32,000 nucleotides of DNA from Methanobacterium sp. BRmetb2 (GCA_003491285.1 CP022705.1:1095647-1127646), one strand, 5' to 3'. Positions 102-15,384 are shown, numbered from the stretch's first letter. Notes: a model not told the origin generated them from the sequence alone. Made by a program: numbers and translations.

Positions 102-830
102 ATTAAGCGACACTCGCTATTTGCATTGTTATTAGCTTTGGGCATAACAATGCTTGCGATTCCATCCTCATTTGGGGGTGTGGATAGCGTAAATAATTAT
201 AAAAACGCAAAAATTGAATTAAATAACGACGAAATACAACAAGTAAGTGCAGCGACTTATAAAAAAGTATGGTACAAAAAGTACTATAAAAAGTACTATA
301 AAAAGTACTATAAAAAGTACTATAAAAAGTACTATAAAAAGTGGTACAAATCTGGCGGGCGCTGGAGATACTACTGGAAATCGTATTGGAAGTCTTATTG
401 GACATATAAATATGTGAAGAAATCTAGCAGTGTAAGCGCAGCTAGTACTTCATCTTCTAAGACTTATAAAACCAGTTCTTCCAGTTCTGATTCTGTTTCA
501 ACCACTGGATTAAGTTTTACGGCGAGTTATATCAACCGAAACTATAACCACCGATACGGAGCTTCTACAACTGCATCTGGTGTTCGTAGAACTGGTTATG
601 GTGATTGTTGGGGATTAGCAGATTTAGCTGCCCAGGAATTAAAGAAGAAAGGTTACACAGTTCGTGTAGTCCAAGGTGCGAGCCGAGAATCAGCTCGACA
701 CAGATGGGTTCAGTATAAGTCTGGTGGTAAGTGGAAGACTTTTGAATCGACCATGGTCACCAAAAAGTATGGTTCCAAACACTATTCCTATGCCATAGCC
801 ACTGCAAGAACAGTAATCAAATACTACTAA
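102..830 (+). CDS. Secreted small paralog A: signal peptide, K/Y/W-rich (KKYY)n repeat, Ser/Thr linker, C-terminal minimal transglutaminase/Pei-like cysteine-peptidase-type core
   Basis: The ORF track gives 126..830 (TTG). The frame stays open upstream to ATT at 102, which follows GGAGG (90-94) by 7 nt, the same layout as in four paralogs. The N-terminus IKRHSLFALLLALGITMLAIPSS is signal-peptide-like. The C-terminus GYGDCWGLADLAAQEL...HRWVQY...KWKTFEST aligns with the G-x-C / H-x-W / W-x-T-x-(D/E)-x-T core of the transglutaminase domains in the genes ending at 10076 and 12598. Confidence 0.8.
   Translation: MKRHSLFALLLALGITMLAIPSSFGGVDSVNNYKNAKIELNNDEIQQVSAATYKKVWYKKYYKKYYKKYYKKYYKKYYKKWYKSGGRWRYYWKSYWKSYWTYKYVKKSSSVSAASTSSSKTYKTSSSSSDSVSTTGLSFTASYINRNYNHRYGASTTASGVRRTGYGDCWGLADLAAQELKKKGYTVRVVQGASRESARHRWVQYKSGGKWKTFESTMVTKKYGSKHYSYAIATARTVIKYY
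262..347 (+). repeat. In-frame 12-bp tandem repeat AAAAAGTACTAT, 5 perfect copies (276..335) flanked by degenerate copies; encodes (KKYY)5
   Basis: Counted directly in the sequence. Perfect units lie at 276-287, 288-299, 300-311, 312-323 and 324-335. Variants aaagtatggtac and aaaaagtggtac flank them. Paralog B (1429..2097) has only about one perfect unit at the same place. Confidence 0.95.
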
Positions 831-853
831 ATAAAATTGTAAAACAAACAGAA

Positions 854-880
854 GAGGTTTCAAATAACCTCATTTTTTTT
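854..880 (+). terminator. Hairpin plus oligo-T terminator after paralog A
   Basis: GAGGTT (854-859), loop tcaaat, AACCTC (866-871), then T8 (873-880), about 25 nt after the stop codon. Confidence 0.6.
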
Positions 881-1300
881 ATTTTTCTTTATTTTTATAA
901 AAAAATTATTATTTGTTATAAAATCTTTATAATTGTTATAATCCATTGCTAAATCATTTTTAAAAGGATTTTGATTGAGTTGATTCCATGTTTTCCATGC
1001 AAATATTGAAAATATATATATATAAATTGCATTAAAGCAGTTTTTTTCAATGACATTAACGTTTAAAAGGTTTTTTTCCTTATTTTAAACTCAAATAAGT
1101 GTGTTTTATATTTGGAGCGGTACCCAGCTTTTGAAACCAATCATATTTAACCATTTAAGTTGAAACGGGTTTGTATAATGTTTTAATCTTAAAAATGGAG
1201 CATAATTTACAGATTTTTATATTCTGCTAATATAATCTTATATTAAAATGTTTTATATGTTAAAAAGAGTTTTAAAACTGCTTTTTTTCCAAAATTAAAA

Positions 1301-1315
1301 CGCAATGTTTATATA
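1301..1315 (+). promoter_or_regulatory. Putative archaeal TATA box (TTTATATA at 1308-1315) for paralog B
   Basis: This is a consensus-like archaeal TATA box inside a block conserved upstream of all paralogs visible in the window (aatgttttatat...gcttttttt...tttatata). It lies about 120 bp upstream of the ATT start. Confidence 0.45.
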
Positions 1316-1428
1316 TAGTGATATTATGATTCATTTATAGTTCAAAAGTAAGTGGAAGGCTGTAATAAATAGAAAATGATATTCTGTTTTTTAATATAAG
1401 TCTTACTCTTGAATAAGGAGGCGGTATA

Positions 1429-2097
1429 ATTAAGCGACACTCGATATTTGCATTGCTATTTGCTTTGAGCATAGCAATGCTTGCTGTCCCATCCTCTGTT
1501 GTGGGCATGGATGGCGATAATATTCAAGACAACACGAAAGTTGAATTAGATAATAAAGAAATACAACAAGTAAGTGCAGCGACTTATAAAAAAGTATATT
1601 ACAAAAAGTACTATAAAAAATGGTACAAATCGTATGGACGTTGGAAATACTATTGGAAATCTTACTGGACATACAAGTATGTGAAGAAATCTAGTAGTGT
1701 AAAAGCAACTAGTACTACATCTTCTAAGACCTATAAATCTGGTTCTTCCAGTTCTGGATCAGTTTCAACCAGTGGATTAAGTTCTACGGCGAGTTATATC
1801 AACCGGAATTATAATCATCGTTCTGGAGCTTCAACTACTGCATCTGGTGTTCGTAGAACTGGTTATGGTGATTGTTGGGGATTAGCAGATTTAGCTGCCC
1901 AGGAATTAAAGAAGAAAGGTTACACAGTTCGTGTAGTCCAAGGTGCGAGCCGAGGATCTTCCAGACACAGATGGGTTCAGTATAAGTCTGGTGGTAAGTG
2001 GAAGACTTTTGAATCGACCATGGTCACCAAAAGATATGGTTCCAAACACTATTCCTATGCCATAGCCACTGCAAGAACAGTAATCAAATACTACTAA
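1429..2097 (+). CDS. Secreted small paralog B (same architecture as A, shorter K/Y/W repeat)
   Basis: The ORF track gives 1453..2097 (TTG), extended in frame to ATT at 1429 after GGAGG (1417-1421) plus 7 nt. Positions 1838..2097 are colinear with 571..830, with only about 8 mismatches. Confidence 0.8.
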   Translation: MKRHSIFALLFALSIAMLAVPSSVVGMDGDNIQDNTKVELDNKEIQQVSAATYKKVYYKKYYKKWYKSYGRWKYYWKSYWTYKYVKKSSSVKATSTTSSKTYKSGSSSSGSVSTSGLSSTASYINRNYNHRSGASTTASGVRRTGYGDCWGLADLAAQELKKKGYTVRVVQGASRGSSRHRWVQYKSGGKWKTFESTMVTKRYGSKHYSYAIATARTVIKYY

Positions 2098-2110
2098 GTT
2101 GAATTATTAT

Positions 2111-2210
2111 AGTAATCGGATATTACTAATTAAAATAAGTTTAAATGTAATCGGATATTACTATGCTGAATTTAACTTAATTAACTTAATAGTAACTAAG
2201 ATATTACTAA
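2111..2210 (+). repeat. Three direct copies of a hairpin-capable 17-18 bp element (GTAATCGGATATTACTA)
   Basis: Perfect copies lie at 2112-2128 and 2147-2163, with a degenerate copy at 2192-2209. Each perfect copy contains AGTAAT-cggat-ATTACT (6-bp stem). The element starts immediately downstream of the paralog B stop codon. Confidence 0.7.
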
Positions 2211-2224
2211 ATAAAGAATTAGTT

Positions 2225-2270
2225 GAGAGGTTTTAAAATCTCTCTTTAACTTATTTATTTTAATTTTTTA
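2225..2270 (+). terminator. Possible hairpin / T-rich terminator after paralog B
   Basis: GAGAG (2225-2229), 10-nt loop, CTCTC (2240-2244), followed by a T-rich tract ending in T6. Confidence 0.35.
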
Positions 2271-2727
2271 AAAAAGCAAAAGCCACGTTAAATTAGATTT
2301 AACCACTATTTAGATTTTATTATTAATTAAAAATTTATGATGGATTGTTTTTGTATACAAAATTATTTTAATAGAGAAATAGTGTTGAAAAAATGGTTAT
2401 TCAAATTAATTAGTGATAGCTACATCTATTCTATTCTAATAATTCAATTTATATTGTTTTTAAATTGTTTAAATTAATAAAATTAGCCAGAATATTCTTT
2501 TTTTTAGAATTTTAGGATAATTTCAAAGGAATTGTAATTTAAGCCTATTTAATTTTTTTGAATTAGCTATTAAATGGTGACTTATAAAAATGTAAAACAT
2601 TATAACTTTTTAATCATGAAAATGGTCTATAAATTATAGACTTTGAGATTAAGGTTATTTATTCTTTTATTAGAATGTTTTATATATTAAAAAGAGTTCT
2701 AAAACAGCCTTTTTTTTAAAATTAAAC

Positions 2728-2742
2728 CACAATATTTATATA
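2728..2742 (+). promoter_or_regulatory. Putative TATA box (TTTATATA at 2735-2742) for paralog C
   Basis: Same conserved block as at 1301-1315, about 120 bp upstream of the ATT start at 2857. Confidence 0.45.
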
Positions 2743-2856
2743 TAATCAGAATATGATTATTTTTATTGTTCAGACGAAGGACTTAAAAAACTTAATATAA
2801 TTAGAAAAATTTTTTATTTTTCAAGAGGGTCCACGTTTGAATGAGGAGGCGGTATA

Positions 2857-4320
2857 ATTAAGCGAGAGAAGAAATTTTTCGCGGCGTTAATAGCATGCAG
2901 CTTTTTGATGCTTTTTTCAATGGCTGGAGTTAATGCTGCAGAAAACGATTCTACATATACAAATATAACAAATGATAACATAATTCAAGAAGATCAGACG
3001 AATTCTACAATTAATGGCACTGAAGATCAGACAGATACTACTACATATCAAGCTAGTGCTGAGGATCCTACTGGTTTTGTAACTGTTGAAGAAGTTGAAA
3101 CAGCTGCAACTAACCTTAAAAATTATGTGGAAACACATAAAACTTTACCAGACACTATAGAAGTTGGATCAAAGACATTAACTATGGCCCAATTTTTAAA
3201 AGTTTTATTGACAACTACAATACATTTAGATCAAGGCATAATTGATTCAATAAACATTGACGCAGTGGATGATGCACCAAACCCTGCAGGTCAAAATATC
3301 TCAGACAACATTCTAAAATCAGGATACTTAGAAGATGCTATCAATATACTTAATTTCATGGATTCCTATGGAAGGGCACCAAACTATTGGAGTACTTCGA
3401 TTGGTAATCTACGGTTTGAAAATCTGGTACTTAGTTATGCTAATATCATGGATTTCAATGAGAATAATAATCGACTACCAAACTACACTAAGATTCGATC
3501 ATCCGATTTCAAATGGCCTGTGACTGTTGAAGAAATTGAAACAGCATCTATTTACCTTAAAAATTATGCGAACTCACATAAAGCTTTACCGGCGACTATT
3601 CAGGTTGGTTCCAACTCATTGACTATGTCTGAGTTTTTGAGGGTTTTAATGACAACCGTGATAAATTTAGATCAAAATGTATCTACACCAGTTGATATGG
3701 ATAATGTGAATAATGCGCCTAGTCCAGCAGGTGTGGTTATTTCAGGTAATATTCTAAAATCAGAGTATCTAAAAAATGCTACTACTATTCTAAATTTCAT
3801 AGATTCCAATGGAAGAGCACCAAATTATACGAATACTTCATTTGGTAATCTAAGGTTTGAATATATGGTGTATAATTTTGCTAAAATCATGGATTTCCAC
3901 AAAGATTACAATAGACTACCTAACTATACTATAGTCCAAACATCTGCAATGAGTTATGAATTAAAAGAAAATTATTCTTATTCAGTTTCAACTAGTGGTT
4001 TGAATGCAGTGGCCCGATATATAAATCAAAACTTCAATCACCGTTCTGGAGCTTCTACTACAGCAGCAGGTGTTTTAAAAACTGGTTATGGTGATTGTTG
4101 GGGATTAGCAGATTTGGCTGCCCAGGAGTTAAGTAAGAGTGGTTACAAAGTTCGTGTAGTTCAAGGTGCAAGCAGTGGTTCTTATAATCACCGTTGGGTG
4201 CAGTACTATGCTTATGGTAAATGGAATACTTTTGAATCTACAATGATTACCCAAAGATACGGTTCCAAACATTACTCATATGCCATAGCATCGGTAAGAA
4301 CAGTAATCAAATATTATTAA
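2857..4320 (+). CDS. Secreted paralog C: signal peptide, acidic sequon-rich linker, 2 x 147-aa pseudomurein-binding-repeat (PMBR)-like units, C-terminal minimal transglutaminase/Pei-like core
   Basis: The ORF track start (TTG at 2905) leaves only MMLFSMAGVNA, too short for a signal peptide. The frame is open back to the stop at 2842-2844. No ATG, GTG or TTG lies between them. ATT at 2857 follows GGAGG (2845-2849) by 7 nt and gives IKREKKFFAALIACSFLMLFSMAGVNA|AE. The C-terminal 121 aa are homologous to the C-termini of A and B (GYGDCWGLADLAAQEL, HRWVQY, FEST). Confidence 0.85.
   Translation: MKREKKFFAALIACSFLMLFSMAGVNAAENDSTYTNITNDNIIQEDQTNSTINGTEDQTDTTTYQASAEDPTGFVTVEEVETAATNLKNYVETHKTLPDTIEVGSKTLTMAQFLKVLLTTTIHLDQGIIDSINIDAVDDAPNPAGQNISDNILKSGYLEDAINILNFMDSYGRAPNYWSTSIGNLRFENLVLSYANIMDFNENNNRLPNYTKIRSSDFKWPVTVEEIETASIYLKNYANSHKALPATIQVGSNSLTMSEFLRVLMTTVINLDQNVSTPVDMDNVNNAPSPAGVVISGNILKSEYLKNATTILNFIDSNGRAPNYTNTSFGNLRFEYMVYNFAKIMDFHKDYNRLPNYTIVQTSAMSYELKENYSYSVSTSGLNAVARYINQNFNHRSGASTTAAGVLKTGYGDCWGLADLAAQELSKSGYKVRVVQGASSGSYNHRWVQYYAYGKWNTFESTMITQRYGSKHYSYAIASVRTVIKYY
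3076..3957 (+). repeat. 2 x 441-bp intragenic PMBR-like units in paralog C
   Basis: Units 3076-3516 and 3517-3957 both begin xVTVEE(V/I)ETA...LKNY and end ...NRLPNYT. Each holds three PMBR-like motifs: LKNYVExHxxLPxTIxVG, ILNFxDSxGRAPNY and IMDFxxxxNRLPNY. Confidence 0.85.
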
Positions 4321-4352
4321 GAGGAAATTTCCTCTTTTTATTTTTATTTTTT
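4321..4352 (+). terminator. Hairpin plus oligo-T terminator after paralog C
   Basis: The palindrome GAGGAAATTTCCTC (4321-4334) directly follows the stop codon. T5, T5 and T6 runs come next. Confidence 0.6.
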
Positions 4353-4399
4353 AAAGGCTTTTTAAATTCCTAGATAAAAATAAGGCTTATTTAATATTT

Positions 4400-4662
4400 A
4401 ATGTTTAGATGGTTGGTGAGTAGTCCATTAGTTCTTTTTTAAATTATATCTTAATTCGAAGAGTTTATATTTATTGATTGTAATATTCAAAGTCCTTATT
4501 TTCTAAAAATAATATTTTTATTGCGATTATTAAATTAAAAATAATATAATGATGAGGGTGGACCCTACCTTTTTTATGAAAGCTTATTAGAAGTTTTTAA
4601 AATGGAAAAATAATCTCAGAAAAAGTTTTTTTTCAGAAATTTAATGAAAAAAAAATTATATA
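4400..4662 (+). repeat. Conserved upstream non-coding module, copy 1 (before paralog D)
   Basis: It shares ordered blocks with the copies at 7668-7974, 10147-10484 and 12675-13014: gagtttatatttattgatt, cttattttctaaaaataat, a GC-richer island, ttatgaaa.cttattagaa.gttttaaa.gg.aaaata, an A-run/T-run palindrome, then the TATA box. Confidence 0.7.
4649..4662 (+). promoter_or_regulatory. Putative TATA box (TTATATA at 4656-4662) for paralog D
   Basis: Homologous position to the TTTATATA boxes of the other paralogs, about 90 bp upstream of ATG 4747. Confidence 0.4.
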
Positions 4663-4746
4663 AGATATATATTAATAATTCTATAGTCCGCAAACATATG
4701 TAAAATCATATATATACAAATAAAAATTGGTGATACTATTACGCGA

Positions 4747-6174
4747 ATGAAGTTTTTCGTGGCTTTATTAGCATGCAGCTTTTTGATGCTTTTTTCAATG
4801 GTTGGAGTTAATGCTGTTGAAAACAATACTACAGATGGAACTGTAATAAATGATATTAATGTATTGGAAGAGGAAAACAACCCTTTACAGTCCAGTGATA
4901 CAGATTCTACAAGTAGTGACACTGAAGATCAGACAGATACTACTACATATCAAGCTAGTGCTGAGGATCCTCCTATTAATTCTGTAAGTATTGAAGAGGT
5001 TGAAGCAGCTTCTGTTTTTCTTAGTGGTTATGTAGCATCACATAATACTTTGCCAGAGACTATTCAGGTTGGATCATATACATTGACTATGGCTCAGTTT
5101 TTAAAAGTTTTATTGTATACTACACTGCAGTTAGATCAGGGAAATCACAATCCCATAAAAATTAGCGCGGTAAATAATGCATCTAATCCATCTGATATTA
5201 ATGTTTCAGGCAACATTTTAAAATCAGAATATTTAAGAAATGCTATCAATATTCTTTATTTCATGAAGGACTATGGAAGGGCTCCGAACTATTGGCTCAC
5301 TTCCTTGGGCAATCTTAGATATGAAGCTATTGTACTAAGTTATGCTAAAATCATTGATTTCCATGAATATTATAATAGGTTACCTAACTATATTAAAATC
5401 AGCCGATACGATTTTAATAATTATAATAATGTTCATGGAATATGGATACAATCAGCAAGTGTGTACACCCTAGAGGTTAGTGAATTAATAAAAATGGACA
5501 TAACTGATGTGTTTGTTATATGTAAAAGAACAGGTTCTAATATATACTCCACCATCCTTCCTATATTACTCAATAAACTTCAAGGAACCAGTATAAGAGT
5601 TCATGCATGGATAATCTGTTTCCATGATGATAGTGGTTTTATTGATCCTTCCAATGAAACCTATCAACAAGATCTGATTAATTACATCTCATTACTAATG
5701 AATAACTATAATATTGACGGTGTACATTTAGATTATGTCAGATATCCTGGCGATGCTTATAACCATAATGGGACTGAAGTAATAACTAACTTCGTTGAAG
5801 ATGTCTACAACAGAGTTAAATCCATTAATAATGGACTCGCAGTTTCTGCGGCGTTAATGCCCGAAAAAGAGTCTAATGCATATTATTATGGGCAGGATTA
5901 TGGGCTATTAGCTCCTTATCTGGACTTTATGGTGCCAATGATTTACAAGTATGAGTACACCCCAACCACTGCGTGGATAGCTAGCACTACCCAGTATATT
6001 GTGGGTCAAGCAGGGGACACTCCAGTAATAGCAGGATTACAAACTTACAATGATGATTATGAACCAATTCTTCCTGCAGAATTAAGAAATGATATAAATG
6101 TAGCGGTGGCTAACGGTTCTTGTGGATTTGCATTATTTAGGTATGGATTAATCCACGAAGATTTCACATACTAA
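4747..6174 (+). CDS. Secreted paralog D: signal peptide, acidic linker, one PMBR-like unit (4981-5421), C-terminal TIM-barrel glycoside-hydrolase-like domain (GHL10 / DUF4015 type)
   Basis: ATG start gives MKFFVALLACSFLMLFSMVGVNA|VE. GGTGAT (4729-4734) also sits 3 nt before an in-frame ATT at 4738. The C-terminal 250 aa contain IRVHAWIICF...YNIDGVHLDYVRYPG...MVPMIYKY...GFALFRY, which resembles the (HL)DY(V/I)R(Y/F)P signature of the glycosyl-hydrolase-like families. Confidence 0.85.
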   Translation: MKFFVALLACSFLMLFSMVGVNAVENNTTDGTVINDINVLEEENNPLQSSDTDSTSSDTEDQTDTTTYQASAEDPPINSVSIEEVEAASVFLSGYVASHNTLPETIQVGSYTLTMAQFLKVLLYTTLQLDQGNHNPIKISAVNNASNPSDINVSGNILKSEYLRNAINILYFMKDYGRAPNYWLTSLGNLRYEAIVLSYAKIIDFHEYYNRLPNYIKISRYDFNNYNNVHGIWIQSASVYTLEVSELIKMDITDVFVICKRTGSNIYSTILPILLNKLQGTSIRVHAWIICFHDDSGFIDPSNETYQQDLINYISLLMNNYNIDGVHLDYVRYPGDAYNHNGTEVITNFVEDVYNRVKSINNGLAVSAALMPEKESNAYYYGQDYGLLAPYLDFMVPMIYKYEYTPTTAWIASTTQYIVGQAGDTPVIAGLQTYNDDYEPILPAELRNDINVAVANGSCGFALFRYGLIHEDFTY

Positions 6175-6404
6175 TGGATTTAAATAATGATATAACTATA
6201 TTTCACACGGAACCACATTCTAAACCATTTTTTTATAATTTCTATTTTTTAAAATCTCAAAATATCACATTTTAGCATATTAATTTTGTAAATTAAAACT
6301 TATAACTTATAAGTGTAACACTTATAACTTATTACAACGATAAAAATGAAACCTCAATCAAATTAATCAAATTTTTTAAAATGAATAGGGTTTACATAAG
6401 TTTT

Positions 6405-7526
6405 TTAATCCAATGTTGCCTGATATACTCCTTTAAATTTAACAAATGGTTCAGCTCTTTTGATTACTGCTCCCAATTTTTTAAGTTCTTCTAATTTATT
6501 AAATACATGACCTTTTCTTTTTTCATGGAGTATTCTAAGAGCTGATATTTTACCAATACCCGGTACAGTTATCAATTCTTTAAAGGAGGCAGAATTTATT
6601 TCTACAGGAAATTTTTCAGGATTATTTAATGCCATCAAATATTTGGGATCTTCATCCACAGACAGGTTTCCCTCCCCATCAAAGATCAACTCGTTCAGAT
6701 TAAATCCGTAATAATTTATTAAATAATCTGCCTGATAAAGTCTCGGAGCTCTCATAGGTTCAGGTTTATCTAGATTTTCGAGAGGTGTTTCTTTTAGAGG
6801 TTGGAATGGACTGTAATAACTTCTTTTCATTCCAAAATTATTTGAAAGCCATTTGACTCTCTTAAGGATTTCTTCATCACTTTCATTATTAGCCCCTATA
6901 ATAAACTGGGTAGTTTGGCCAGAGGGCGCGAATTCTGGATTTTTATTAGATATCCTTTTTATCCACTTCATTCTTTTTAATATGTCTTTTTGATAATCTT
7001 TAGTAGAGGTTAGTTCTTGGAAACCATCAGGTGTTGCCGCTTCAATATTGATACTAACCCGATCAGACAGACTCATAGCTCTTTTAATCATATCATAAGA
7101 TGATCCTGGAAGAATTTTTAAATGAATGTAACCTTTATAACCATGATCAACTCTCAATAAACGAGTAACTTCAATCATTTTCTCCATGGTATTATCAATA
7201 TCTTTGGAAACACCAGAACTTAAAAAAAGACCATCAACCATGTTTTGGTAATAATAATCCAAAAATATATCACTAAGTTCTTCAGGACTATATTCTAACC
7301 TTGAAAACTTCCTTTTACTATGATTCGTGCAATATTTACAATCATTATTACATTTATTTGTCATTAAAACCTTAAAAAGTGGAATAAAACATCCATTAGG
7401 GGAAGTTGCATTATAAACTCCTGGAATTTCACCATTCTTAATATTTTCCACCGAAGGGGTAACATAATTGCACAGATCATATTGGGCAGAATCACTTAAA
7501 ATTTTCAACTTATTAATATTCATCAT
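6405..7526 (-). CDS. Radical SAM protein with C-terminal helix-hairpin-helix (putative DNA modification/repair radical SAM family)
   Basis: The CNNDCKYC (CxxxCxxC) cluster motif is present. The N-terminus KLKILSDSAQYDLC resembles the family signature. The C-terminus LITVPGIGKISALRIL is an HhH motif. Confidence 0.75.
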   Translation of the reverse strand: MMNINKLKILSDSAQYDLCNYVTPSVENIKNGEIPGVYNATSPNGCFIPLFKVLMTNKCNNDCKYCTNHSKRKFSRLEYSPEELSDIFLDYYYQNMVDGLFLSSGVSKDIDNTMEKMIEVTRLLRVDHGYKGYIHLKILPGSSYDMIKRAMSLSDRVSINIEAATPDGFQELTSTKDYQKDILKRMKWIKRISNKNPEFAPSGQTTQFIIGANNESDEEILKRVKWLSNNFGMKRSYYSPFQPLKETPLENLDKPEPMRAPRLYQADYLINYYGFNLNELIFDGEGNLSVDEDPKYLMALNNPEKFPVEINSASFKELITVPGIGKISALRILHEKRKGHVFNKLEELKKLGAVIKRAEPFVKFKGVYQATLD

Positions 7527-7667
7527 GTAAATTTTGTTTGAATCAATATAATTATTTTTCTCATATTTTTCAAGAGCTAATTAATGGATTAAACTAATTT
7601 AATCTAAAAATTATGATTAAATTTTTTATTAAAATGTTTTTAGGGTCTTTAATTATTTTTAATCTAC

Positions 7668-7974
7668 GTTTGTTTATTATTTTCTATTTTGAGTTATTTT
7701 TTTTCTTTTATTTTGGATTTGGATTTTATATGGTGGGGTGATGGTCTTTTGGTTCTTTTTTTGATATTATGTTGGTTTAAAGATTCATATCTATTAATTA
7801 TAGTGGCAAAGTTCTTATTTTCTAAAAATAATCTTTTGATGGTTTTTCACTCAAATAGGATCTGGGATGATGATGGAGTATATCTCTTATATGTAAAGTT
7901 ATTAGAATGTTTTAAATGGTAAAACAAGTTATGGGAAGGCTTTTTTTTGAAAATTTAAAGAAAAGTTTTATATA
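7668..7974 (+). repeat. Conserved upstream non-coding module, copy 2 (before paralog E)
   Basis: Same ordered blocks as the other three copies. The 77-aa ORF 7689..7922 falls inside it and is not conserved as an ORF in the other copies. Confidence 0.7.
7960..7974 (+). promoter_or_regulatory. Putative BRE/TATA promoter (TTTATATA at 7967-7974) for paralog E
   Basis: A purine-rich stretch (aaaag) is followed by TTTATATA. The box starts 26 bp after the start of the conserved T8 run, the same spacing as in the copies before F and G. Confidence 0.5.
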
Positions 7975-8057
7975 AGATATAATGATAAAATTTTATAATA
8001 GCAAATGAATTATGCAAATCACATTAATTCTTAGAGAATTATATTGATAAATAAAAC

Positions 8058-10076
8058 TTGGGTGGTATCATCACACGAAAGAAATTTTTTTTAGCTTTAT
8101 TAGCATGTAGCTTTTTAATGCTTTTTTCTATGACTGATGTTAATGCTGCAGAAAGCGATTCTGTAGAGGATGGAAATGTTACTGTACTTCCAGAAGATAA
8201 TTCTGTACAGTCCAGCGGATTAGAGTCTACTGAGGATGCGGAAGAAGAGACTGATACAAATACGTATCAAATTAGTGCTGATTATATTGGTTTTGTGACG
8301 GTTGAAGAGGTTGAAACAGCTTCTAATTACCTTAATTATTATGTAGAGACATATAACTGTTTACCAGAGACTATTACAGTTGGATCCTATGATTTGACTA
8401 TGTCTCAATTTTTAAAGATTTTATTGGATACTAGTATTCAGTTAGATCAGGAAGATTATATTACTCCAATACCATTCACTGACATGGGTGATGCACCTAA
8501 TCCAGCAGGACAATCCATTTCAGGATACATTCTTAAATCAGAATATATCCTGAATGCTGCTGCTATTCTTAATTTCATGGAGGGTTACGGAAGATCACCG
8601 AATTATTGGCGTACTTCTTTAGGTAATCTAAGGTTTGAGGGTCTTGTGCTTAGTTATGCTAATATAATCGATTTCTATAGGGAATATAATGAGCTGCCTA
8701 GCAACACTTTTATTATTCCATGTGATTTTATGGGGTTAGTGACTGTTGATGAAGTTGAAGCGGCTTCTGTTTATCTTAAAAATTACGTGGAGACAAATAA
8801 CCATTTTCCAGAGACTATCCCTGTTGGAGCAAAATCTTTAACCATTGCTCAGTTTTTCAAGGTTTTATTAACTGCAGTTGTTCAGATTGATCAGGAAGAT
8901 TATACTACTCTAATATATGTTACTGATTTGGGCGATGTGCCTAATTCAGCCGGGCATGTTATTTTGGGCAACATTTTAAAATCGGATTATATTTCAAACG
9001 CCGGGCAACTTCTTAGTTTTATGGAGTCATATGGGAGAGCACCGAATTATTGGCGTACTTCTTTAGGTAATCTATGTTTTGAGGGTCTTGTGCTTAGTTA
9101 TGCCAATATCATGGATTTCCAGGAATCTAATGGCAGATTACCCAACTATACAGTTGTCAATTTTTCAGGGGCTGCGACTTTTGACAATGTTAAAGAGGCG
9201 TCTCTATATCTTAAGAAATATGTAACGGCTCTTAAACTTTTACCGTGGAGTATTAAGGTTGGTTCTTATACTTTGACATTGTCTGAATTTTTGAAAGTTT
9301 TATTGATATCAGTGATAAATTCAGATCAAAATCTATTTACTTCGGTGGTTATCACTGATGTGGATAATCCTCCTAAGCCAGCAGGCCAAAATATTTCAGG
9401 TACCATTTTAAAATCAGAGTATATCCAAAATGCTAATGCTATTCTCAATTTCATTGATTCCAATGGGAGAGCACCGAATTATGGAATTACTTCGTTGGGT
9501 GATTTAAGATTTGATTACATTGTGTTTGGTTATGCTAAGATCATGGATTTCCACAAAGATTATAATAGACTCCCTAATTACACTGTTGTAAAAAATTCTG
9601 ACTTTAATTTCAGTACAATTAACGCAATTTACTATTCAGCTCAGCTTAGACCAACAAACAATTGTCAGTCCACAAGTTCAACCATAATAAATTTTGCTAA
9701 AAACTTAACTAAAAACTGTTTTACCACCTACGATAAGGCTTTAGCCATATTTGAATGGGTAAGAGATTATTGTGATTATACATTCTATTACAATACCAAA
9801 TATGGTGCAGTTGGAATGTTGTACCGTAAGGATGGTAATTGTATAGATCATTCACATTTAATCAATGCTTTAGCTCGTTCTGTGGGTATACCTGCTAGAT
9901 ATGCTCATGCAAAGTGTAAATTCACTAATATGACCGTGGGACACATATGGTCAGAATTATATATCCGGGGGAGATGGGTTACTGCTGATGCAACGAGCTT
10001 AAGAAATGATTTAGGGACACAATTGAATTGTAAAATATTGTATTGGAAAGGAAGATACACCCAACTACCTTTCTGA
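8058..10076 (+). CDS. Secreted paralog E: signal peptide, linker, 3 PMBR-like units, C-terminal transglutaminase-like (Pei-type Cys-His-Asp) domain
   Basis: The ORF track start is TTG at 8058. The codon homologous to the family ATT is ATC at 8070, 3 nt after GGTGGT (8061-8066). The C-terminus reads FEWVRDYCDYTFY...DGNCIDHSHLINALARSVGIPARY...GHIWSELY...RWVTADAT, a classical transglutaminase core with Cys, His and Asp. Confidence 0.9.
   Translation: MGGIITRKKFFLALLACSFLMLFSMTDVNAAESDSVEDGNVTVLPEDNSVQSSGLESTEDAEEETDTNTYQISADYIGFVTVEEVETASNYLNYYVETYNCLPETITVGSYDLTMSQFLKILLDTSIQLDQEDYITPIPFTDMGDAPNPAGQSISGYILKSEYILNAAAILNFMEGYGRSPNYWRTSLGNLRFEGLVLSYANIIDFYREYNELPSNTFIIPCDFMGLVTVDEVEAASVYLKNYVETNNHFPETIPVGAKSLTIAQFFKVLLTAVVQIDQEDYTTLIYVTDLGDVPNSAGHVILGNILKSDYISNAGQLLSFMESYGRAPNYWRTSLGNLCFEGLVLSYANIMDFQESNGRLPNYTVVNFSGAATFDNVKEASLYLKKYVTALKLLPWSIKVGSYTLTLSEFLKVLLISVINSDQNLFTSVVITDVDNPPKPAGQNISGTILKSEYIQNANAILNFIDSNGRAPNYGITSLGDLRFDYIVFGYAKIMDFHKDYNRLPNYTVVKNSDFNFSTINAIYYSAQLRPTNNCQSTSSTIINFAKNLTKNCFTTYDKALAIFEWVRDYCDYTFYYNTKYGAVGMLYRKDGNCIDHSHLINALARSVGIPARYAHAKCKFTNMTVGHIWSELYIRGRWVTADATSLRNDLGTQLNCKILYWKGRYTQLPF
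8292..9611 (+). repeat. 3 intragenic PMBR-like units in paralog E (444, 435 and 441 bp)
   Basis: Units start at 8292 (FVTVEEVETAS), 8736 (LVTVDEVEAAS) and 9171 (AATFDNVKEAS). Each ends with N(E/R)LP(S/N)(N/Y)T. Confidence 0.85.
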
Positions 10077-10146
10077 ACTTTTTTTATCATTTTTTTCATT
10101 TTCTGGATAATTTTATATATCTAGTTTATTAGGGCAATATTAATGT

Positions 10147-10484
10147 GGTTTTAACTATATTTTAGTTTATATTTGTTTACTAATTTGTGTTCAAGGTTAA
10201 TTTATTTGTTTTATTCTCGATTTGGGGTTTTTATGATAGTTTAGTAGTTTGTCAGTTCTTTTTTTAGGTTTTATGTTGGTTCAGAGGGTTTATATTTATT
10301 AATTATACTATTTACAGTCTTTATTTTCTAAAAATAATCTTTTTCTGATTGTTTTTCACTAAAATTTAATATAAAGAGGAAGTTGCATTATATCCCTTTT
10401 ATGAAAACTTATTATAATGTTTTAAATGGTAAAATAAGCCATAAAAAAGCTTTTTTTTAGAATTTTAATGAAAAGGTTTATATA
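10147..10484 (+). repeat. Conserved upstream non-coding module, copy 3 (before paralog F)
   Basis: Colinear with 12675-13014 over almost the whole intergenic region. The TATA-like box at 10289 and the T8 run at 10451 are 162 bp apart, exactly as in the copies before D and G. Confidence 0.75.
10470..10484 (+). promoter_or_regulatory. Putative BRE/TATA promoter (GAAAAGG + TTTATATA at 10477-10484) for paralog F
   Basis: Consensus archaeal TATA box with a purine-rich BRE-like stretch, 82 bp upstream of the ATT start. Confidence 0.5.
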
Positions 10485-10558
10485 AGATTATGTTAGAATT
10501 CAAATAGTCAATAAATGATTTAAAAAAAATCATTTTAATTGAACTTGGAGGCGGTATA

Positions 10559-12598
10559 ATTAAGCGAAAGAAGAAATTTTTCGTGGCCATGTTAGCGTGC
10601 AGCTTTTTGATGCTTTTTTCAATGGCTGGTGTTAATGCTGCAGAAGATGATTCTTCAGATGGGATTATAATAAATGATACCAATGTAACTCAAGAAGATA
10701 ATCCTTTACAGTCCGATGATAACGATTCTACAGATAATGGCACAGAAGATACGGGAGATCAGACAGATACTATTACATATCAAACTAGTGCTGAGGGTTC
10801 TTCTGGTTCTGTGACGGTTGAAGAAGTTGAAACGGCTGCTAGCGAACTTAAGAATTATGTGGAGATACATAACAGTTTACCAGACACTATTCAGGTCGGT
10901 TCATATACTTTGACCATGGCTCAGTTTTTAAATGTCTTATTAAATACTACACTACAATTAGATCAGGAAATATATGATCGAATAACAATTAATACGGTGG
11001 ATGATGCACCTAACCCTTCTGGTAACGTTAATTCGGGTAATATTTTAAAATCAGAATATTTAGAAAACGCTGTCAGTATCCTTAATTTTATGGATACTCA
11101 TGGAAGGGCACCAAACTATGGGAGTACTTCTTTAGGTAATCTAAGATTTGAAGGCCTTGTATTTAGTTTTGCTAAAATCATAGATTTTTACAAAGATTTT
11201 GATAGGCTACCTAACTACGCAGTTATTATCCAATCCGGTTTCATGGGTTCTGTGACGGTTGAAGAAGTTGAAGCAGCTGCTAGCGAACTTAAGAATTATG
11301 TGGAGATACATAACAGTTTACCAGACACTATTCAGGTCGGTTCAAAGTATTTGACCATGGCTCAGTTTTTAAGTGTCTTATTAAATACTACGCTACAATT
11401 AGATCAGGGAAATTATTCTCCGATAAAGATTATTGCAATGGGCGATGCACCTAATCCAACAGGTGAAATTGTTTCAGGTAACATTCTAAAATCAGAGTAT
11501 TTACTAAATGCTACAAATATTCTTAATTTCATGGATTCCTATGGAAGGGCACCAAACTATTGCAATATTACCTTAGGTAATTCTAGATTTGAATATATGG
11601 TGTTGAGTTTTGCTAAAATCATAGATTTCTACAAAGAGAATGATAGGCTACCAAACTATACTAAAATTCTTCCAACGGATTCTATAGGATCAGTGACTTT
11701 TGAAGAGATTGAAGAAGCAGCAGTTTATCTTAAAGAGTATATAACAGCACTTAAATTTTTACCAAAGACTATTCAAGTTGGTTCCTATACTTTGACCATG
11801 TCAGAATTTTTAAAAATTTTATTGACAACAGTAATAAATTCAGATCAAAATATATTTACACCAGTAAATGTCACAGATGTGAATAATTCGCCAAATCCTG
11901 CAGGTCAGAAAATTTCGGCCAACATTCTAAAATCAGAATATATGCAAAATGCTATTGATATTCTTAATTTTATGGATACTTATGGAAGGGCACCAAACTA
12001 TTGGAAAACTTCATTAGGTAATCTCAGGTTTGAATATGTAGTATTTAGTTTTGCTAAAATCATAGATTTTCAAAAAGAGTACAATAGACTACCTAACTAC
12101 GCGCTCATACATACATCTGACATACTTTTCAATGTAATTGACGCACCGGGCAATTTACTACAGTATCTTATGCCAACAGATAATTGTCAGTCATTAAGTT
12201 CAACCATAATAAATTTTGCTAAAAATTTAACTAAAAACTGTTATACTGACTATGATAAGGCTAAAGTCATATTTGAATGGGTAAGAGACTATTGTAGCTA
12301 TACGTTCTATTACAATACCAAATATGGTGCAGTAGAAATGTTAAACCGTAAGGATGGTAATTGTATAGATCATTCACATTTAATCAATGCTTTAGCTCGT
12401 TCTGTGGGTATACCTGCTAGATATGCTCATGCACAGTGTAAATTCACCAGCATGACAGTGGGACATATTTGGTCTGAACTATACGTAAATGGAAGATGGG
12501 TCACTGCTGATGCGACAAGCACAAGAAACAATTTAGGAACACAAGTGAACTGTTCAATATTATATTGGAAAGGAAGATACGCAGAACTACCTTTCTAA
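10559..12598 (+). CDS. Secreted paralog F: signal peptide, linker, 3 x 147-aa PMBR-like units, C-terminal transglutaminase-like (Pei-type) domain
   Basis: The ORF track gives 10583 (GTG), extended in frame to ATT at 10559 within ...GGAGGCGGTATA ATT AAG CGA AAG AAG AAA TTT TTC. The C-terminal domain (12131-12598) is colinear with 9612-10076 of paralog E, including an 88-bp identical block. Confidence 0.9.
   Translation: MKRKKKFFVAMLACSFLMLFSMAGVNAAEDDSSDGIIINDTNVTQEDNPLQSDDNDSTDNGTEDTGDQTDTITYQTSAEGSSGSVTVEEVETAASELKNYVEIHNSLPDTIQVGSYTLTMAQFLNVLLNTTLQLDQEIYDRITINTVDDAPNPSGNVNSGNILKSEYLENAVSILNFMDTHGRAPNYGSTSLGNLRFEGLVFSFAKIIDFYKDFDRLPNYAVIIQSGFMGSVTVEEVEAAASELKNYVEIHNSLPDTIQVGSKYLTMAQFLSVLLNTTLQLDQGNYSPIKIIAMGDAPNPTGEIVSGNILKSEYLLNATNILNFMDSYGRAPNYCNITLGNSRFEYMVLSFAKIIDFYKENDRLPNYTKILPTDSIGSVTFEEIEEAAVYLKEYITALKFLPKTIQVGSYTLTMSEFLKILLTTVINSDQNIFTPVNVTDVNNSPNPAGQKISANILKSEYMQNAIDILNFMDTYGRAPNYWKTSLGNLRFEYVVFSFAKIIDFQKEYNRLPNYALIHTSDILFNVIDAPGNLLQYLMPTDNCQSLSSTIINFAKNLTKNCYTDYDKAKVIFEWVRDYCSYTFYYNTKYGAVEMLNRKDGNCIDHSHLINALARSVGIPARYAHAQCKFTSMTVGHIWSELYVNGRWVTADATSTRNNLGTQVNCSILYWKGRYAELPF
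10808..12130 (+). repeat. 3 x 441-bp intragenic PMBR-like units in paralog F
   Basis: Units start at 10808, 11249 and 11690 (SVTVEEVE / SVTVEEVE / SVTFEEIE). The first 160 bp of units 1 and 2 differ at only about 8 positions. Confidence 0.9.
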
Positions 12599-12674
12599 AC
12601 CCTTTTTTTATTTTTAGATTTTTAATTGCAGAATATTATATTATATATGTTTTAATTTATTATAGAGATGTTAA

Positions 12675-13014
12675 ACGGTTTTAACTATTTCAAACCGATT
12701 GTGTGTTTATTATTTTGTATTTAAGATTATTTTATTTGTTTTATCCTAGATTTGGATTTCATATGATTGGTTTGTGGTCTTTTGATTCTATTTTTAGGGT
12801 TTAAGTTGGTTCAAAGAGTTTATATTTATTGATTATACTATTCACAGCTCTTATTTTCTAAAAATAATCTTTTTAGGACGGGTTTTTACTAAAATCTAAT
12901 ATAAAAGGGGCCGGGGACTATATATCTTTTATGAAAACCTATTAGAATGTTTTAAATGGAAAAATAAGCTATAAAAAAGCTTTTTTTCGGAAATTTAATG
13001 AAAAGGTTTATATA
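12675..13014 (+). repeat. Conserved upstream non-coding module, copy 4 (before paralog G)
   Basis: Colinear with 10147-10484. It contains a GC island, ggggccggggac (12907-12918), in an otherwise AT-rich context. Confidence 0.75.
13000..13014 (+). promoter_or_regulatory. Putative BRE/TATA promoter (TTTATATA at 13007-13014) for paralog G
   Basis: Same GAAAAGGTTTATATA sequence as before paralog F. Confidence 0.5.
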
Positions 13015-13123
13015 ATATTTATGTTAGAATCTCATAATCAGCAAATAAACTATAATATCGTTTTATATTCTATATCCAGTAAATATCTAAAAAAATTCCA
13101 TTATATAATTTGGAGGGGTTTAC

Positions 13124-14563
13124 ATTAAGCGAGAGAAATTTTTCGTGGTGTTAATAGCGTGCAGCTTTTTGATGCTTTTTTCAATGGCTGGTGTTAATGC
13201 TGCAGAAGATGATTCTTCAGATGGGACTATAATAAATGATACCAATGTAACTCAAGAAGATAATCCTTTACAGTCCGATGATAACGATTCTACAGATAAT
13301 GGCACAGAAGATACGGGAGATCAGACAGATACTATTACATATCAAACTAGTGCTGAGGGTTCTTCTGGTTCTGTGACGGTTGAAGAAGTTGAAACGGCTG
13401 CTAGCGAACTTAAGAATTATGTGGAGATACATAACAGTTTACCAGACACTATTCAGGTCGGTTCATATACTTTGACCATGTCAGAATTTTTAAAGATTTT
13501 ATTGATGACTGTCATAAATTTAGATCAAAATGTGTCTACGCCAGTGGCTGTCACGGAGGTGGGTGATGCACCTAATCCTGCAGGTCAAAATATTTCGGGT
13601 AATCTTCTAAAATCAGAGTATCTGCAAAATGCTATTGGTATTCTTAATTTTATTGATTCCAATGGAAGGGCACCAAATTATTTTAGGACGTCTTTGGGTA
13701 ATCTACGGTTTGAATATATAGTATTTAGTTATACTAAAATCATGGATTTCTATGGAGATTATGATAGGCTCCCTAACTATACTAAAATTTGTTTATCTGA
13801 TTTTATGCAGTCTTTAACAGTTGATGAGATTGAAACAGCTTCTAATTGTCTTAAAAATTATGTACAGGCAAATAAAATTCTACCAGACACTATTCAGGTC
13901 GGTTCAAAGTGTTTAACCATGTCAGAATTTTTAAATGTTTTATTGATGGCAGTGATTAATTCAGATAGAAATGTGTCTATGCCCGTGGCTGTCACGGAGG
14001 TGGGTGATGCACCTAATCCTGCAGGTCAAAATATTTCAGGTAACATTCAAAAATCAGAATATGTAAGAAAGGCAACCAATATTCTAAATTTCATGAATTC
14101 CAATGATAGAGCACCAAACTATTCTACCACATCTTTAGGTAATCTAAGGTACGAATATATAGTGTTCAATTTTGCAAAGATCATGGACTTCCATAAATAC
14201 TACAATAGACTGCCTAACTATACCGTAGTCCAAACATCTGCCATGAGTTATCAAATGATGGAAATTTCTTCTAAATACGGTGCTAAAAACGTTATTGTGA
14301 CAGATAGTTATGTTCAATGCTCTGGAAGATGTACTTGTAGCTTGTATCAAGATTACGATTATCATACAGTTAAATTTGTTAACTACTGTCCTTATTGCCA
14401 TAAAAATTCTACACTGGACTATGAAGAAGGAAATACAATTTATGATAACCCTGAAGGAATGTGGGTGTGCAGTATGAGTAAAGGTGGCTGTGATGCAGAT
14501 TTCTGCTTAGTGCATGGTAAAGCCCATGTGACTAGTGGTGCTAAATATTTAACCTCTGCATAA
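13124..14563 (+). CDS. Secreted paralog G: signal peptide, linker, 2 x 147-aa PMBR-like units, C-terminal Cys-rich zinc-ribbon-like domain of unknown function
   Basis: The ORF track gives 13145 (GTG), extended to ATT at 13124 after GGAGG (13112-13116) plus 7 nt. The C-terminal ~100 aa read CSGRCTC...YCPYCH...WVCSMSKGGCDADFCLVHGKAH (8 Cys and several His arranged in CxxxCxC, CxxC and Cx6Cx4CxxH groups). Confidence 0.85.
   Translation: MKREKFFVVLIACSFLMLFSMAGVNAAEDDSSDGTIINDTNVTQEDNPLQSDDNDSTDNGTEDTGDQTDTITYQTSAEGSSGSVTVEEVETAASELKNYVEIHNSLPDTIQVGSYTLTMSEFLKILLMTVINLDQNVSTPVAVTEVGDAPNPAGQNISGNLLKSEYLQNAIGILNFIDSNGRAPNYFRTSLGNLRFEYIVFSYTKIMDFYGDYDRLPNYTKICLSDFMQSLTVDEIETASNCLKNYVQANKILPDTIQVGSKCLTMSEFLNVLLMAVINSDRNVSMPVAVTEVGDAPNPAGQNISGNIQKSEYVRKATNILNFMNSNDRAPNYSTTSLGNLRYEYIVFNFAKIMDFHKYYNRLPNYTVVQTSAMSYQMMEISSKYGAKNVIVTDSYVQCSGRCTCSLYQDYDYHTVKFVNYCPYCHKNSTLDYEEGNTIYDNPEGMWVCSMSKGGCDADFCLVHGKAHVTSGAKYLTSA
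13370..14251 (+). repeat. 2 x 441-bp intragenic PMBR-like units in paralog G
   Basis: Units 13370-13810 and 13811-14251. The second ends with LPNYTVVQTSAMSY, the same junction as in paralog C. Confidence 0.85.
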
Positions 14564-14824
14564 ACAATAAATAGGCTGAATTTATTATATCAGTCTAATT
14601 TTATTTATTTTTTGACATTGTTAAGCAGCACTGTAATTTATGTGAGAATTCTAAGTTTTTTTAAGATCATTTTTTTAATTGAAAATAATGGATTAATCCT
14701 TTTTCAGATTTCACCTTAAAGAATTATCTAATTAAAATTAGCCTTTAATTTTAATTCTCTTAAATAAGATTATTTTCGAATTGTATAAATAATAGGAGAA
14801 TTATTATTAAAAGTGGTGTTAAAA

Positions 14825-15376
14825 ATGTGGTTATACATAATTATAGGAATTATAATAATAATATTACTGGCAGCCCTGGCTTTAATGTATAACAGTCTGG
14901 TGGGCTTACGCAATAGAGTTAAAAATGCCTGGTCTCAGATAGATGTTCAACTAAAAAGAAGGACAGACCTAATACCTAACCTGGTTGAAACAGTTAAAGG
15001 ATATGCAACACACGAAAAAGGAGTTTTTGAAGAAGTAACCAGGGCTCGTTCAAGTTTAATAAACGCCCAAACAGTTAAAGAAAATGAAGAGGCTAATAAT
15101 ATGTTAACCGGTGCTCTTAAATCTCTTTTTGCAGTTGCCGAGAATTACCCTGATTTAAAAGCAAGTCAAAACTTCCAGGACCTGCAGATGCAACTGGCTG
15201 AAACTGAAGATAAAATTGCTTACTCACGTCAGTTTTACAATGACACAGTTTTAATGTACAATAACAAAGTTCAAATGTTCCCGAGTAATATCATTGCCCG
15301 CATGTTCAACTTCACAGAATCCGAATTCTTTGAAACAGCAGAAACTGAACGTTCAGTTCCTAAAGTAGAATTTTAG
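14825..15376 (+). CDS. lemA: LemA family membrane protein
   Basis: An N-terminal TM helix is followed by [43 protein letters not shown]...[14 protein letters not shown]...RQFYN, which is typical of LemA. ATG at 14825, preceded by GGTG (14815-14818), is preferred over the ORF-track GTG at 14813. Confidence 0.9.
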
Positions 15377-15384
15377 GTGGTAAA

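Follow-up and report, generated by a model that had tools for sequence, protein, structure and literature searches.

A gene array in Methanobacterium sp. BRmetb2 predicted to encode exported, wall-anchored enzymes for pseudomurein remodelling

To our knowledge, pseudomurein is the sole peptidoglycan-like wall in archaea, and its extracellular enlargement, cutting and cross-linking are little understood. A 2011 review stated that no enzyme was known for its glycosidic bonds and that only phage isopeptidases had been characterised, and described pseudomurein-binding (PMB) domains, which bind the wall through motifs of 30–35 aa each, three of which are required, as shown for MTH719 (PMC3210951). 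Exported transglutaminases have been put forward as candidate pseudomurein cross-linkers (PMC2812497, PMC10117817, PMC11915815), and Cwp19 combines a GHL10 barrel with three wall-binding repeats and acts as an autolytic lytic transglycosylase (PMC6016235, PMC5765458). Here, we describe a locus from the metagenome-assembled genome (MAG) of Methanobacterium sp. BRmetb2, lying within a 32,000-nt stretch that we call the window, in which seven genes (A–G) join putative wall-anchoring modules to four kinds of C-terminal domain. From its sequence, we read the locus, with a probability of roughly 60%, as a toolkit of Sec-exported enzymes that would attach to the pseudomurein sacculus of the producing cell and remodel this wall, and not as a toxin locus.

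An open reading frame (ORF) scan of the array region returned seven plus-strand ORFs at 126–14563, in agreement with the seven same-strand paralogs that an earlier note on this DNA had placed there, and the four kinds of C-terminal end it listed are present. Below, tgS denotes the small transglutaminase-like end of A, B and C, tgL the full transglutaminase-like core of E and F, and PMBR the pseudomurein-binding repeat. Public annotation of both D (AXV37705.1, CIT01_05590) and G (AXV37709.1) is hypothetical. The seven genes are laid out as follows.

102–830, plus strand: gene A (ORF 126–830), with leader and putative ATT start, signal peptide, Lys/Tyr/Trp-rich basic module at 255–425, Ser-rich linker, and tgS at 498–827.
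1429–2097, plus strand: gene B (ORF 1453–2097), built as A, with the basic module at 1582–1692 and tgS at 1765–2094.
2857–4320, plus strand: gene C (ORF 2905–4320), with signal peptide, acidic linker rich in N-x-S/T, PMBR units at 3079–3519 and 3520–3960, and tgS at 3961–4317.
4747–6174, plus strand: gene D (ORF 4747–6174), with ATG start, signal peptide, acidic linker, PMBR unit at 4984–5424, and a glycoside hydrolase (GH)-like TIM barrel at 5425–6171.
8058–10076, plus strand: gene E (ORF 8058–10076), with TTG start, signal peptide, acidic linker, PMBR units at 8295–8738, 8739–9173 and 9174–9614, and tgL at 9615–10073.
10559–12598, plus strand: gene F (ORF 10583–12598), built as E, with PMBR units at 10811–11251, 11252–11692 and 11693–12133, and tgL at 12134–12595.
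13124–14563, plus strand: gene G (ORF 13145–14563), with signal peptide, acidic linker, PMBR units at 13373–13813 and 13814–14254, and a Cys-rich, putatively two-metal-site domain at 14255–14560.

By motif scanning together with pairwise alignment, a 147-aa unit was counted 0, 0, 2, 1, 3, 3 and 2 times in A to G (period 145–148 aa, pairwise identity among the 11 units 46–73%), which confirms for this window the counts proposed earlier; Tandem Repeats Finder (TRF) recovered a 441-bp period in 2.9 copies from F. Against PF09373 (PMBR, cut-off 24.9 bits), C, D, E, F and G scored 69.4, 31.8, 77.0, 126.4 and 75.3 bits, which confirms the assignment of the units to this family, and A and B gave no match. 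When the unit was split in three, the middle motif was a canonical PMBR at 31 bits, but the first and third were degenerate (sub-threshold at 19–20 bits, with no match in some units), such that the suggestion of three PMBR-like motifs per unit holds for the middle motif and is weaker for its neighbours. The unit contains three motif-like segments, the same count as the MTH719 minimum. Judging from PMB-domain experiments on other proteins, one to three units would anchor C–G non-covalently to the wall, with anchoring valency tuned by unit number.

The single unit of D needs qualification, since near-identical assemblies carry two or three. In a complete chromosome 98.5–99.98% identical to ours (L016), D encodes 769 aa with three units (4474–6783); forms of 475, 622 and 769 aa occur in its 90% cluster, and two units are present in several metagenome assemblies. 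In a scaffold that is identical apart from this region (L015), runs of N fall precisely on the D unit (12360–12852), and a unit fragment there is absent from the window. These data indicate either that identical 441-bp units collapsed during assembly or that the window holds one allele of a real copy-number polymorphism.

Searches with PF01841 (Transglut_core, cut-off 23 bits) matched E and F at 76.8 and 80.6 bits and C at 31.0 bits, with A (20.9 bits) and B (22.6 bits) slightly below the cut-off; the C-terminal regions of A and B are 91% identical. Peptidase_C71 (PF12386, cut-off 22 bits) scored below threshold on E (19.3 bits) and F (18.1 bits) and gave no match to A–C. The closest sequence relative of F in the PDB was the putative Cys protease 3isr (E 2.7e-10), and PHROG 37889 matched F weakly (E 2.9e-5). 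A word-index homology search yielded at least two tgS relatives, where the same search gave three for the Cys-rich end of G against 133 in an exhaustive one. An AlphaFold2 (AF2) model of tgS matched the transglutaminase-like protease 3isr in Foldseek (probability 1.0, TM 0.64), as well as the transglutaminase 4xz7, TglA and CPR-C4, and more weakly PeiP (8z4f) and PeiW (8jx4).

The presumed catalytic residues are Cys, His and Glu, invariant in tgS, and Cys-His-Asp in E and F, with a His-to-acid spacing of 15 residues in both classes. Given the shared fold matches and this spacing, tgS and tgL belong to one superfamily with a transglutaminase/papain-like fold. The earlier note had called the minimal and full ends unrelated domains, which does not survive this comparison, although its full Cys-His-Asp core in E and F (77–81 bits) and its reduced Cys-His-Glu core in A–C (21–31 bits in Pfam, with the 3isr match) are both borne out. 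Its parallel to PeiP and PeiW applies to the architecture of PMBR plus transglutaminase but not to family membership (E and F at 18–19 bits against the C71 cut-off of 22), and it had not considered the cross-linker role already present in the literature. The ends of A–C, E and F would act on the Glu-gamma-Ala-epsilon-Lys isopeptide cross-links of the wall, which may either be cleaved, as by Pei, or formed and exchanged, as proposed for exported transglutaminases.

For the barrel of D, we obtained 34.8 bits against Glyco_hydro_18 (PF00704, cut-off 29.6) and 24.3 bits against DUF4015 (PF13200, cut-off 27), a family on which the orthologous barrels of two sister species (L001 and L002) score 29.5 and 30.8 bits. 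Sequence matches in the PDB were the GH18 protein 4wiw, Cwp19 and YaaH, and the D motif DGVHLDYV has Val where 4wiw has Glu. Its 101 homologues come from Methanobacterium, Methanothermobacter and Methanobrevibacter; most are PF13200 proteins, in which PMBR may be present or absent, and some bear the name 'transglutaminase, partial'. These Pfam and PDB matches agree with the GH-like TIM barrel described in the earlier note; the domain is predicted to be a barrel of the DUF4015/GHL type (PF13200, PF02638), with Cwp19 of Clostridioides difficile as its nearest characterised relative, and would act on glycan strands. In the literature, we found no paper tying DUF4015, GHL10 or Cwp19 to pseudomurein.

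We next compared the locus with relatives fetched using the radical-SAM gene as an anchor, among them the two sister species at 76–80% identity. The locus is syntenic in the three species, between ParA/ThrRS and LemA/DUF2207, and the array is absent from 12 Methanobacterium loci that keep the flanks. In the sister species the order is two to three genes with a Lys/Tyr module and tgS, a fused gene, the radical-SAM gene, a gene with two Lys/Tyr modules and the Cys-rich domain, and LemA. The fused gene of both species (775–802 aa) encodes a signal peptide, acidic linker, GH barrel, one PMBR unit and tgL, and the same GH-PMBR-transglutaminase order was seen in partial proteins P0004, P0007 and P0099 of other Methanobacteriaceae. 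This fusion ties glycan-active and peptide-active domains to one substrate. Set against the build of the sister-species locus, the fused gene is split into D and E/F in BRmetb2, with tgL duplicated across the radical-SAM gene. One cassette comprising promoter, leader, signal peptide, acidic linker and PMBR units has likewise replaced the Lys/Tyr modules in C and G. The C-terminal domains had been described as interchangeable; the ends do vary, but the interchange lies mainly in the N-terminal anchoring cassette, PMBR against Lys/Tyr.

Recombination within the array is also visible at finer scale, in a tract shared by F and G:

10666–10918, plus strand: 253-bp tract, identical to 13228–13480 in G, covering the F linker and the start of unit 1.

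The flanks of this tract are about 80% identical, and we interpret it as gene conversion between F and G. In L016, the tgS of A is converted to the B sequence. The end domains are 54–89% identical to those of the sister species (tgS 73–89%, tgL 72–81%, GH barrel 54–67%, Cys-rich domain 75–76%), in the same range as the flanking genes (68–94%). Taken together, the sequence comparisons indicate an array that evolves by unit duplication, gene conversion and cassette replacement, with its catalytic domains under ordinary purifying constraint. As a result of these changes, species and strains differ in anchoring valency and in how the domains are combined.

A conserved N-terminal cassette with differing C-terminal ends, recent recombination (the identical 253-bp tract and strain-level length variation) and wall-lytic domain types held in common with viruses are also what one would expect of a polymorphic effector locus, whose products would be released to lyse competing pseudomurein-walled methanogens. 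We consider this very unlikely. All three species have the same four end types, which match the neighbouring genes in conservation, the position of the locus is fixed, the proteins carry no dedicated secretion or toxin-delivery domain, and PMBR anchoring would hold the enzymes on the producer's own wall. No immunity-like ORFs lie between the genes, as the earlier note had observed, and our check of intergenic ORFs of at least 25 aa found none conserved in L001 or L002. Because immunity genes are absent, end domains are conserved and synteny is fixed, the toxin-locus analogy fails, and of the two options proposed in the earlier note, antagonism and autolysin/remodelling toolkit, the second fits the evidence.

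The end of G had no sequence match in Pfam or the PDB. An exhaustive phmmer search placed it in a family of 133 cluster representatives, mostly proteins of 80–300 aa; among the 58 representatives scanned, PMBR was found in 11, a transglutaminase domain in 3 and a C39 peptidase in 1. In an alignment of 96 sequences, C45, C48, C72 and C79 are lost jointly in 11, which points to a Cys4 ribbon site, while C26, C28 and C84 with His, Cys or Asp at position 87 suggest a second metal site; D82 and G88 are invariant. The Cys spacing is of zinc-ribbon type, consistent with the zinc-ribbon-like module of the earlier note. The AF2 model is all-beta (pLDDT 89), without a significant fold match in the PDB, and in BFVD it matched uncharacterised viral proteins, one of them from Methanobacterium virus Drs3. 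In the proposed toolkit, this domain would be a metal-stabilised wall-interaction domain.

Relatives of the other ends were likewise found in viruses. The pseudomurein-binding repeat protein of Drs3 matches the PMBR and tgL parts over 81% of F, and the Pei of PhiF1 matches as well; tgS gave a weak match to PhiF1 and none in an IMG/VR scan. The Cys-rich domain lies within late-module proteins of 847 and 1041 aa near Pei in MSTV1 and vir249, and further in Drs3 and five IMG/VR contigs. These two Methanobrevibacter virus proteins (L019 3345–5888, MSTV1 XCD08699.1; L020 3699–6824, vir249_00030) have no Pfam domains, and the MSTV1 paper gives no function for its protein. Full-length relatives of the D barrel, 38–39% identical, occur in two IMG/VR contigs. 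One of these (IMGVR_UViG_3300009503_000263, L026) is clearly a tailed virus with terminase, portal and MuF genes, in which a 334-aa protein at 3708–4712 with two PMBR (50.7 bits) and DUF4015 (38 bits), and no signal peptide, is encoded between the portal and the MuF-like head gene; the relative on the second contig is L027 3650–4726. Such a protein would add to Pei a second type of viral enzyme with putative activity on pseudomurein. Overall, viruses of Methanobacteriales contain relatives of three of the four end domains and a weak match to the fourth.

This distribution gives the proposed toolkit a wall-lytic precedent and bears on two further readings. In the first, the locus would be biosynthetic, a functional counterpart of bifunctional penicillin-binding proteins (PBPs) and not an autolysin set: E, F and perhaps A–C would be pseudomurein cross-linking transamidases, with the fused GH-like barrel handling glycan-strand insertion or length. 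Exported transglutaminases are the best published candidates for the Glu-Lys cross-link (PMC2812497; PMC11915815, OG0000044; PMC10117817) in organisms without PBP-like enzymes (PMC2812497). In addition, fusions of GH, PMBR and transglutaminase are widespread, conservation of the catalytic domains resembles that of housekeeping genes, and an O-antigen-polymerase-like membrane protein and a MurJ-like flippase are encoded 4–11 kb downstream. However, the proteins closest in structure and sequence to either transglutaminase type are proteases (3isr, CPR-C4, LapG, PeiP, PeiW) and not cross-linkers, though 4xz7 and TglA match too; virus-borne relatives suit lysis better than synthesis, multi-copy and rapidly reshuffled paralogues are typical of hydrolases, and a GH-type barrel has no known way to polymerise lipid-linked precursors. 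The literature on exported transglutaminases favours cross-linking, hydrolysis is favoured by the closest relatives and by the occurrence in viruses, and we regard a biosynthetic role as unlikely, if a serious contender.

In the second, the end domains would no longer be catalytic, and the proteins would decorate the wall or act at the surface in the manner of adhesins. In gut methanogens, an adhesin annotation is carried by many of the proteins that PSI-BLAST relates to the transglutaminase domain of PeiW (PMC10117817); tgS has Glu in place of Asp, D lacks the GH18 acid and the Cys-rich domain has no recognisable catalytic fold. Yet Cys, His and Asp/Glu are invariant in every tgS and tgL copy and orthologue at the same 15-residue spacing, large repeat or beta-helix regions, as found in adhesin-like proteins, are missing, and viruses also use these domains, which makes this reading improbable. 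We retain the remodelling toolkit as the favoured explanation.

In A and B, and in sister-species orthologues of C and G, a basic module would serve as the anchor instead of PMBR. In A and B it spans 37–57 aa (pI 10), composed almost exclusively of Lys, Arg, Tyr and Trp (13–22 Lys plus Arg, 16–25 Tyr/Trp/Phe, no Asp or Glu), takes the place of PMBR and is followed by a Ser-rich linker. Within the module of A lies a short coding repeat:

276–342, plus strand: 12-bp repeat AAAAAGTACTAT, encoding KKYY, in 5.6 perfect copies (TRF, 100% matches).

The near-identical L016 has three KKYY repeats fewer in A (12 aa), which suggests slippage-type length variation. This unannotated module also fills the PMBR place in orthologous genes, and in both sister species it is inserted in a loop of the GH barrel (L001 11308–13635, L002 11257–13665). 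We consider it a candidate for an alternative wall- or polyanion-binding module.

Export was assessed by eye using Sec criteria (charged n-region, hydrophobic core, small residues at –3/–1). D and E have canonical starts and complete n-h-c signal peptides ending in VNA before A or V, as in D (MKFFVALLACSFLMLFSMVGVNA followed by V); C, F and G have signal-peptide sequence as in D and E, and A, B, C, F and G would satisfy the criteria only if translation begins at ATT. The hydrophobic region is LLxALGIxMLAIPSS in A and B, as compared with ACSFLMLFSMAGVNA in C–G, whose acidic linkers have a pI of about 4 and one to four N-x-S/T sequons. The earlier note had given all seven genes a common leader, a near-identical signal peptide and an acidic linker: the leader, TTGAA-N3-GGAGGCGGTATAATTAAGCGA, is indeed common to all seven, but the other two are confined to C–G, A and B having the different hydrophobic region, basic module and Ser-rich linker instead. 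Tat export via a KR/RR motif was considered and set aside for want of supporting evidence.

Upstream of the leaders lie boxes of archaeal type, the first of them being:

1308–1315, plus strand: archaeal TATA-like box TTTATATA, upstream of B.

Boxes of the TTTATATA type are also found at 2735 (C), 4656 (D), 7967 (E), 10477 (F) and 13007 (G), and terminator-like hairpins with T-runs follow A (854–871), B (2225–2244) and C (4319–4336). Since the boxes of B–G each precede their leader by 85–125 nt, each gene looks like its own transcription unit. A sigma-70 promoter scan (93 sites against 86 expected) is uninformative for an archaeon.

Fourteen array genes from the three species share the motif GGAGG-7 nt-ATT-A(A/C)GCGA, with ATT invariant (window positions 102, 1429, 2857, 10559 and 13124, with equivalents in L001 and L002). 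In 10 of the 14 genes there is no in-frame upstream ATG, GTG or TTG, and in B and C a stop codon stands immediately 5' of GGAGGC, so B cannot start upstream. From its first canonical codon C would have a pre-sequence of only 11 aa, and public gene calls begin within the hydrophobic core of the signal peptide, whereas an ATT start would give a textbook n-region (MKR...). Nine of 134 family members with calls extending upstream read GG(G/D)(I/T)IKR at variable offsets. The invariant ATT 7 nt after GGAGG is probably a non-canonical AUU start codon, for which we found no precedent paper in the literature. Such a start would mean that public annotations cut these proteins short and conceal their signal peptides.

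As we picture the toolkit, each gene would have its own promoter and a GGAGG leader with ATT 7 nt on as a probable weak start codon, and would encode a protein in which the signal peptide is followed by a flexible linker, then an anchoring module, and last a single end that is catalytic or accessory. Several points weigh against this reading. The window comes from a MAG in which one repeat or more is collapsed or variable. For five of the seven genes, the signal peptide requires a putative non-canonical start, and public gene calls would not predict export. A and B fall just below the Pfam cut-off, the tgS model has only moderate confidence (pLDDT 77.5, one of five models), and a transglutaminase-fold sequence does not reveal whether the enzyme cleaves or cross-links. 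D lacks the GH18 catalytic Glu, its DxDxE position reading HLDYV; its DUF4015 score is sub-threshold (24.3 against 27), we know of no characterised DUF4015 member, and the target of the barrel could be a different glycopolymer of the wall, or the barrel could lack catalysis.

A more far-reaching version of the toolkit is tempting, though we hold it as doubtful. The D barrel would then be the missing enzyme cleaving or transglycosylating the beta-1,3 GlcNAc-N-acetyltalosaminuronic acid strands of pseudomurein; fused with a transglutaminase-fold domain, it would make a bifunctional wall enzyme, active on glycan and peptide and confined to pseudomurein archaea; G would contribute, in its Cys-rich domain, a new wall-targeting fold shared by hosts and viruses; and the AUU start would keep dangerous wall enzymes low. 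The locus offers as candidates a PMBR-anchored GH-like barrel that is also viral, two transglutaminase-fold classes and an unannotated metal-binding domain, and supplies natural variants of anchoring valency. Such enzymes would serve as tools to lyse and transform methanogens, and are possible methane-mitigation leads.

The array is interrupted by one gene on the opposite strand:

6405–7526, minus strand: radical-SAM gene, TIGR03916-like (340 bits), between D and E; the synteny anchor, outside the system.

The gene set was as the earlier note had it, but this gene splits what had been described as a tandem array. The protein has a helix-hairpin-helix tail and a putative role in DNA modification or repair; a functional tie to the array was rejected, as the gene is kept without the array in the 12 Methanobacterium loci mentioned above. 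Downstream lie further envelope genes, namely LemA paired with DUF2207, a membrane protein resembling O-antigen polymerases (PF01901, 342 bits) and a flippase of MOP/MurJ-like type, at 14813–17199, 18708–19853 and 25148–26695 (minus strand). In L001, a small secreted Tyr/Lys/Gly-rich protein of 144 aa (19702–20136, minus strand) is encoded beyond the array flank between ParA and ThrRS. A prophage remnant was rejected, as phage genes are missing and the housekeeping flanks are syntenic. The whole window gave no match in Rfam, the locus none in PADLOC and the array none in NCBIfam except a spurious, sub-threshold fliN, which hit G and units in C and F at 17–26 bits (cut-off 84) on the LTMAQFLKVLL part of the unit; the JGI label of G as a FliN-like flagellar switch protein is a spurious annotation.

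Among known systems, PeiW and PeiP (MEROPS C71, PF12386) likewise place N-terminal PMB motifs before a C-terminal transglutaminase-fold Cys-His-Asp domain. E and F differ in falling below the C71 cut-off and within generic PF01841, A–C use Cys-His-Glu, and the array genes are chromosomal and syntenic, not prophage, and add a signal peptide and acidic linker; the array proteins have 3–9 motifs, compared with 4 in PeiW and PeiP. The exported transglutaminases (Leahy 2010; Lupo 2025, OG0000044) are, like E and F, extracellular PF01841 proteins restricted to pseudomurein-walled archaea, a group to which E and F plausibly belong. In the published work these are unclustered single genes, and the GH-barrel fusion, PMBR triplet units and array are not part of its description.

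Cwp19 of C. difficile (GHL10 plus three CWB2) resembles D in its signal peptide, GH-like TIM barrel and three-fold wall-binding repeats, with local similarity around the DGVHxD..YP strand (E 3e-4). It belongs to another GHL family, DUF4015/PF13200 being best in D relatives, and its repeat is CWB2 and not PMBR; the putative substrate of D, a beta-1,3 GlcNAc-NAcTalNA glycan, differs as well. In AcmA (three LysM) and the bifunctional Atl, too, catalysis is coupled to wall-binding repeats whose number varies, and the glycan-plus-peptide bifunctionality of Atl is paralleled by the fused sister-species protein, but the domains are unrelated, the wall is archaeal and a Lys/Tyr/Trp-rich module can stand in as the anchor. 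Polymorphic toxin/immunity loci share the conserved N-terminal cassette, alternative C-terminal ends and paralogue recombination; the array has no immunity genes or delivery system, and its ends are conserved across species. PMBR plus transglutaminase-like proteins in methanogen chromosomes are already known as a class. New are the array with its cassette shuffling, the replacement of the Lys/Tyr module by PMBR, the unannotated Cys-rich family and the putative ATT start, together with the apparent connection between DUF4015 barrels and pseudomurein, both in hosts and in one virus.

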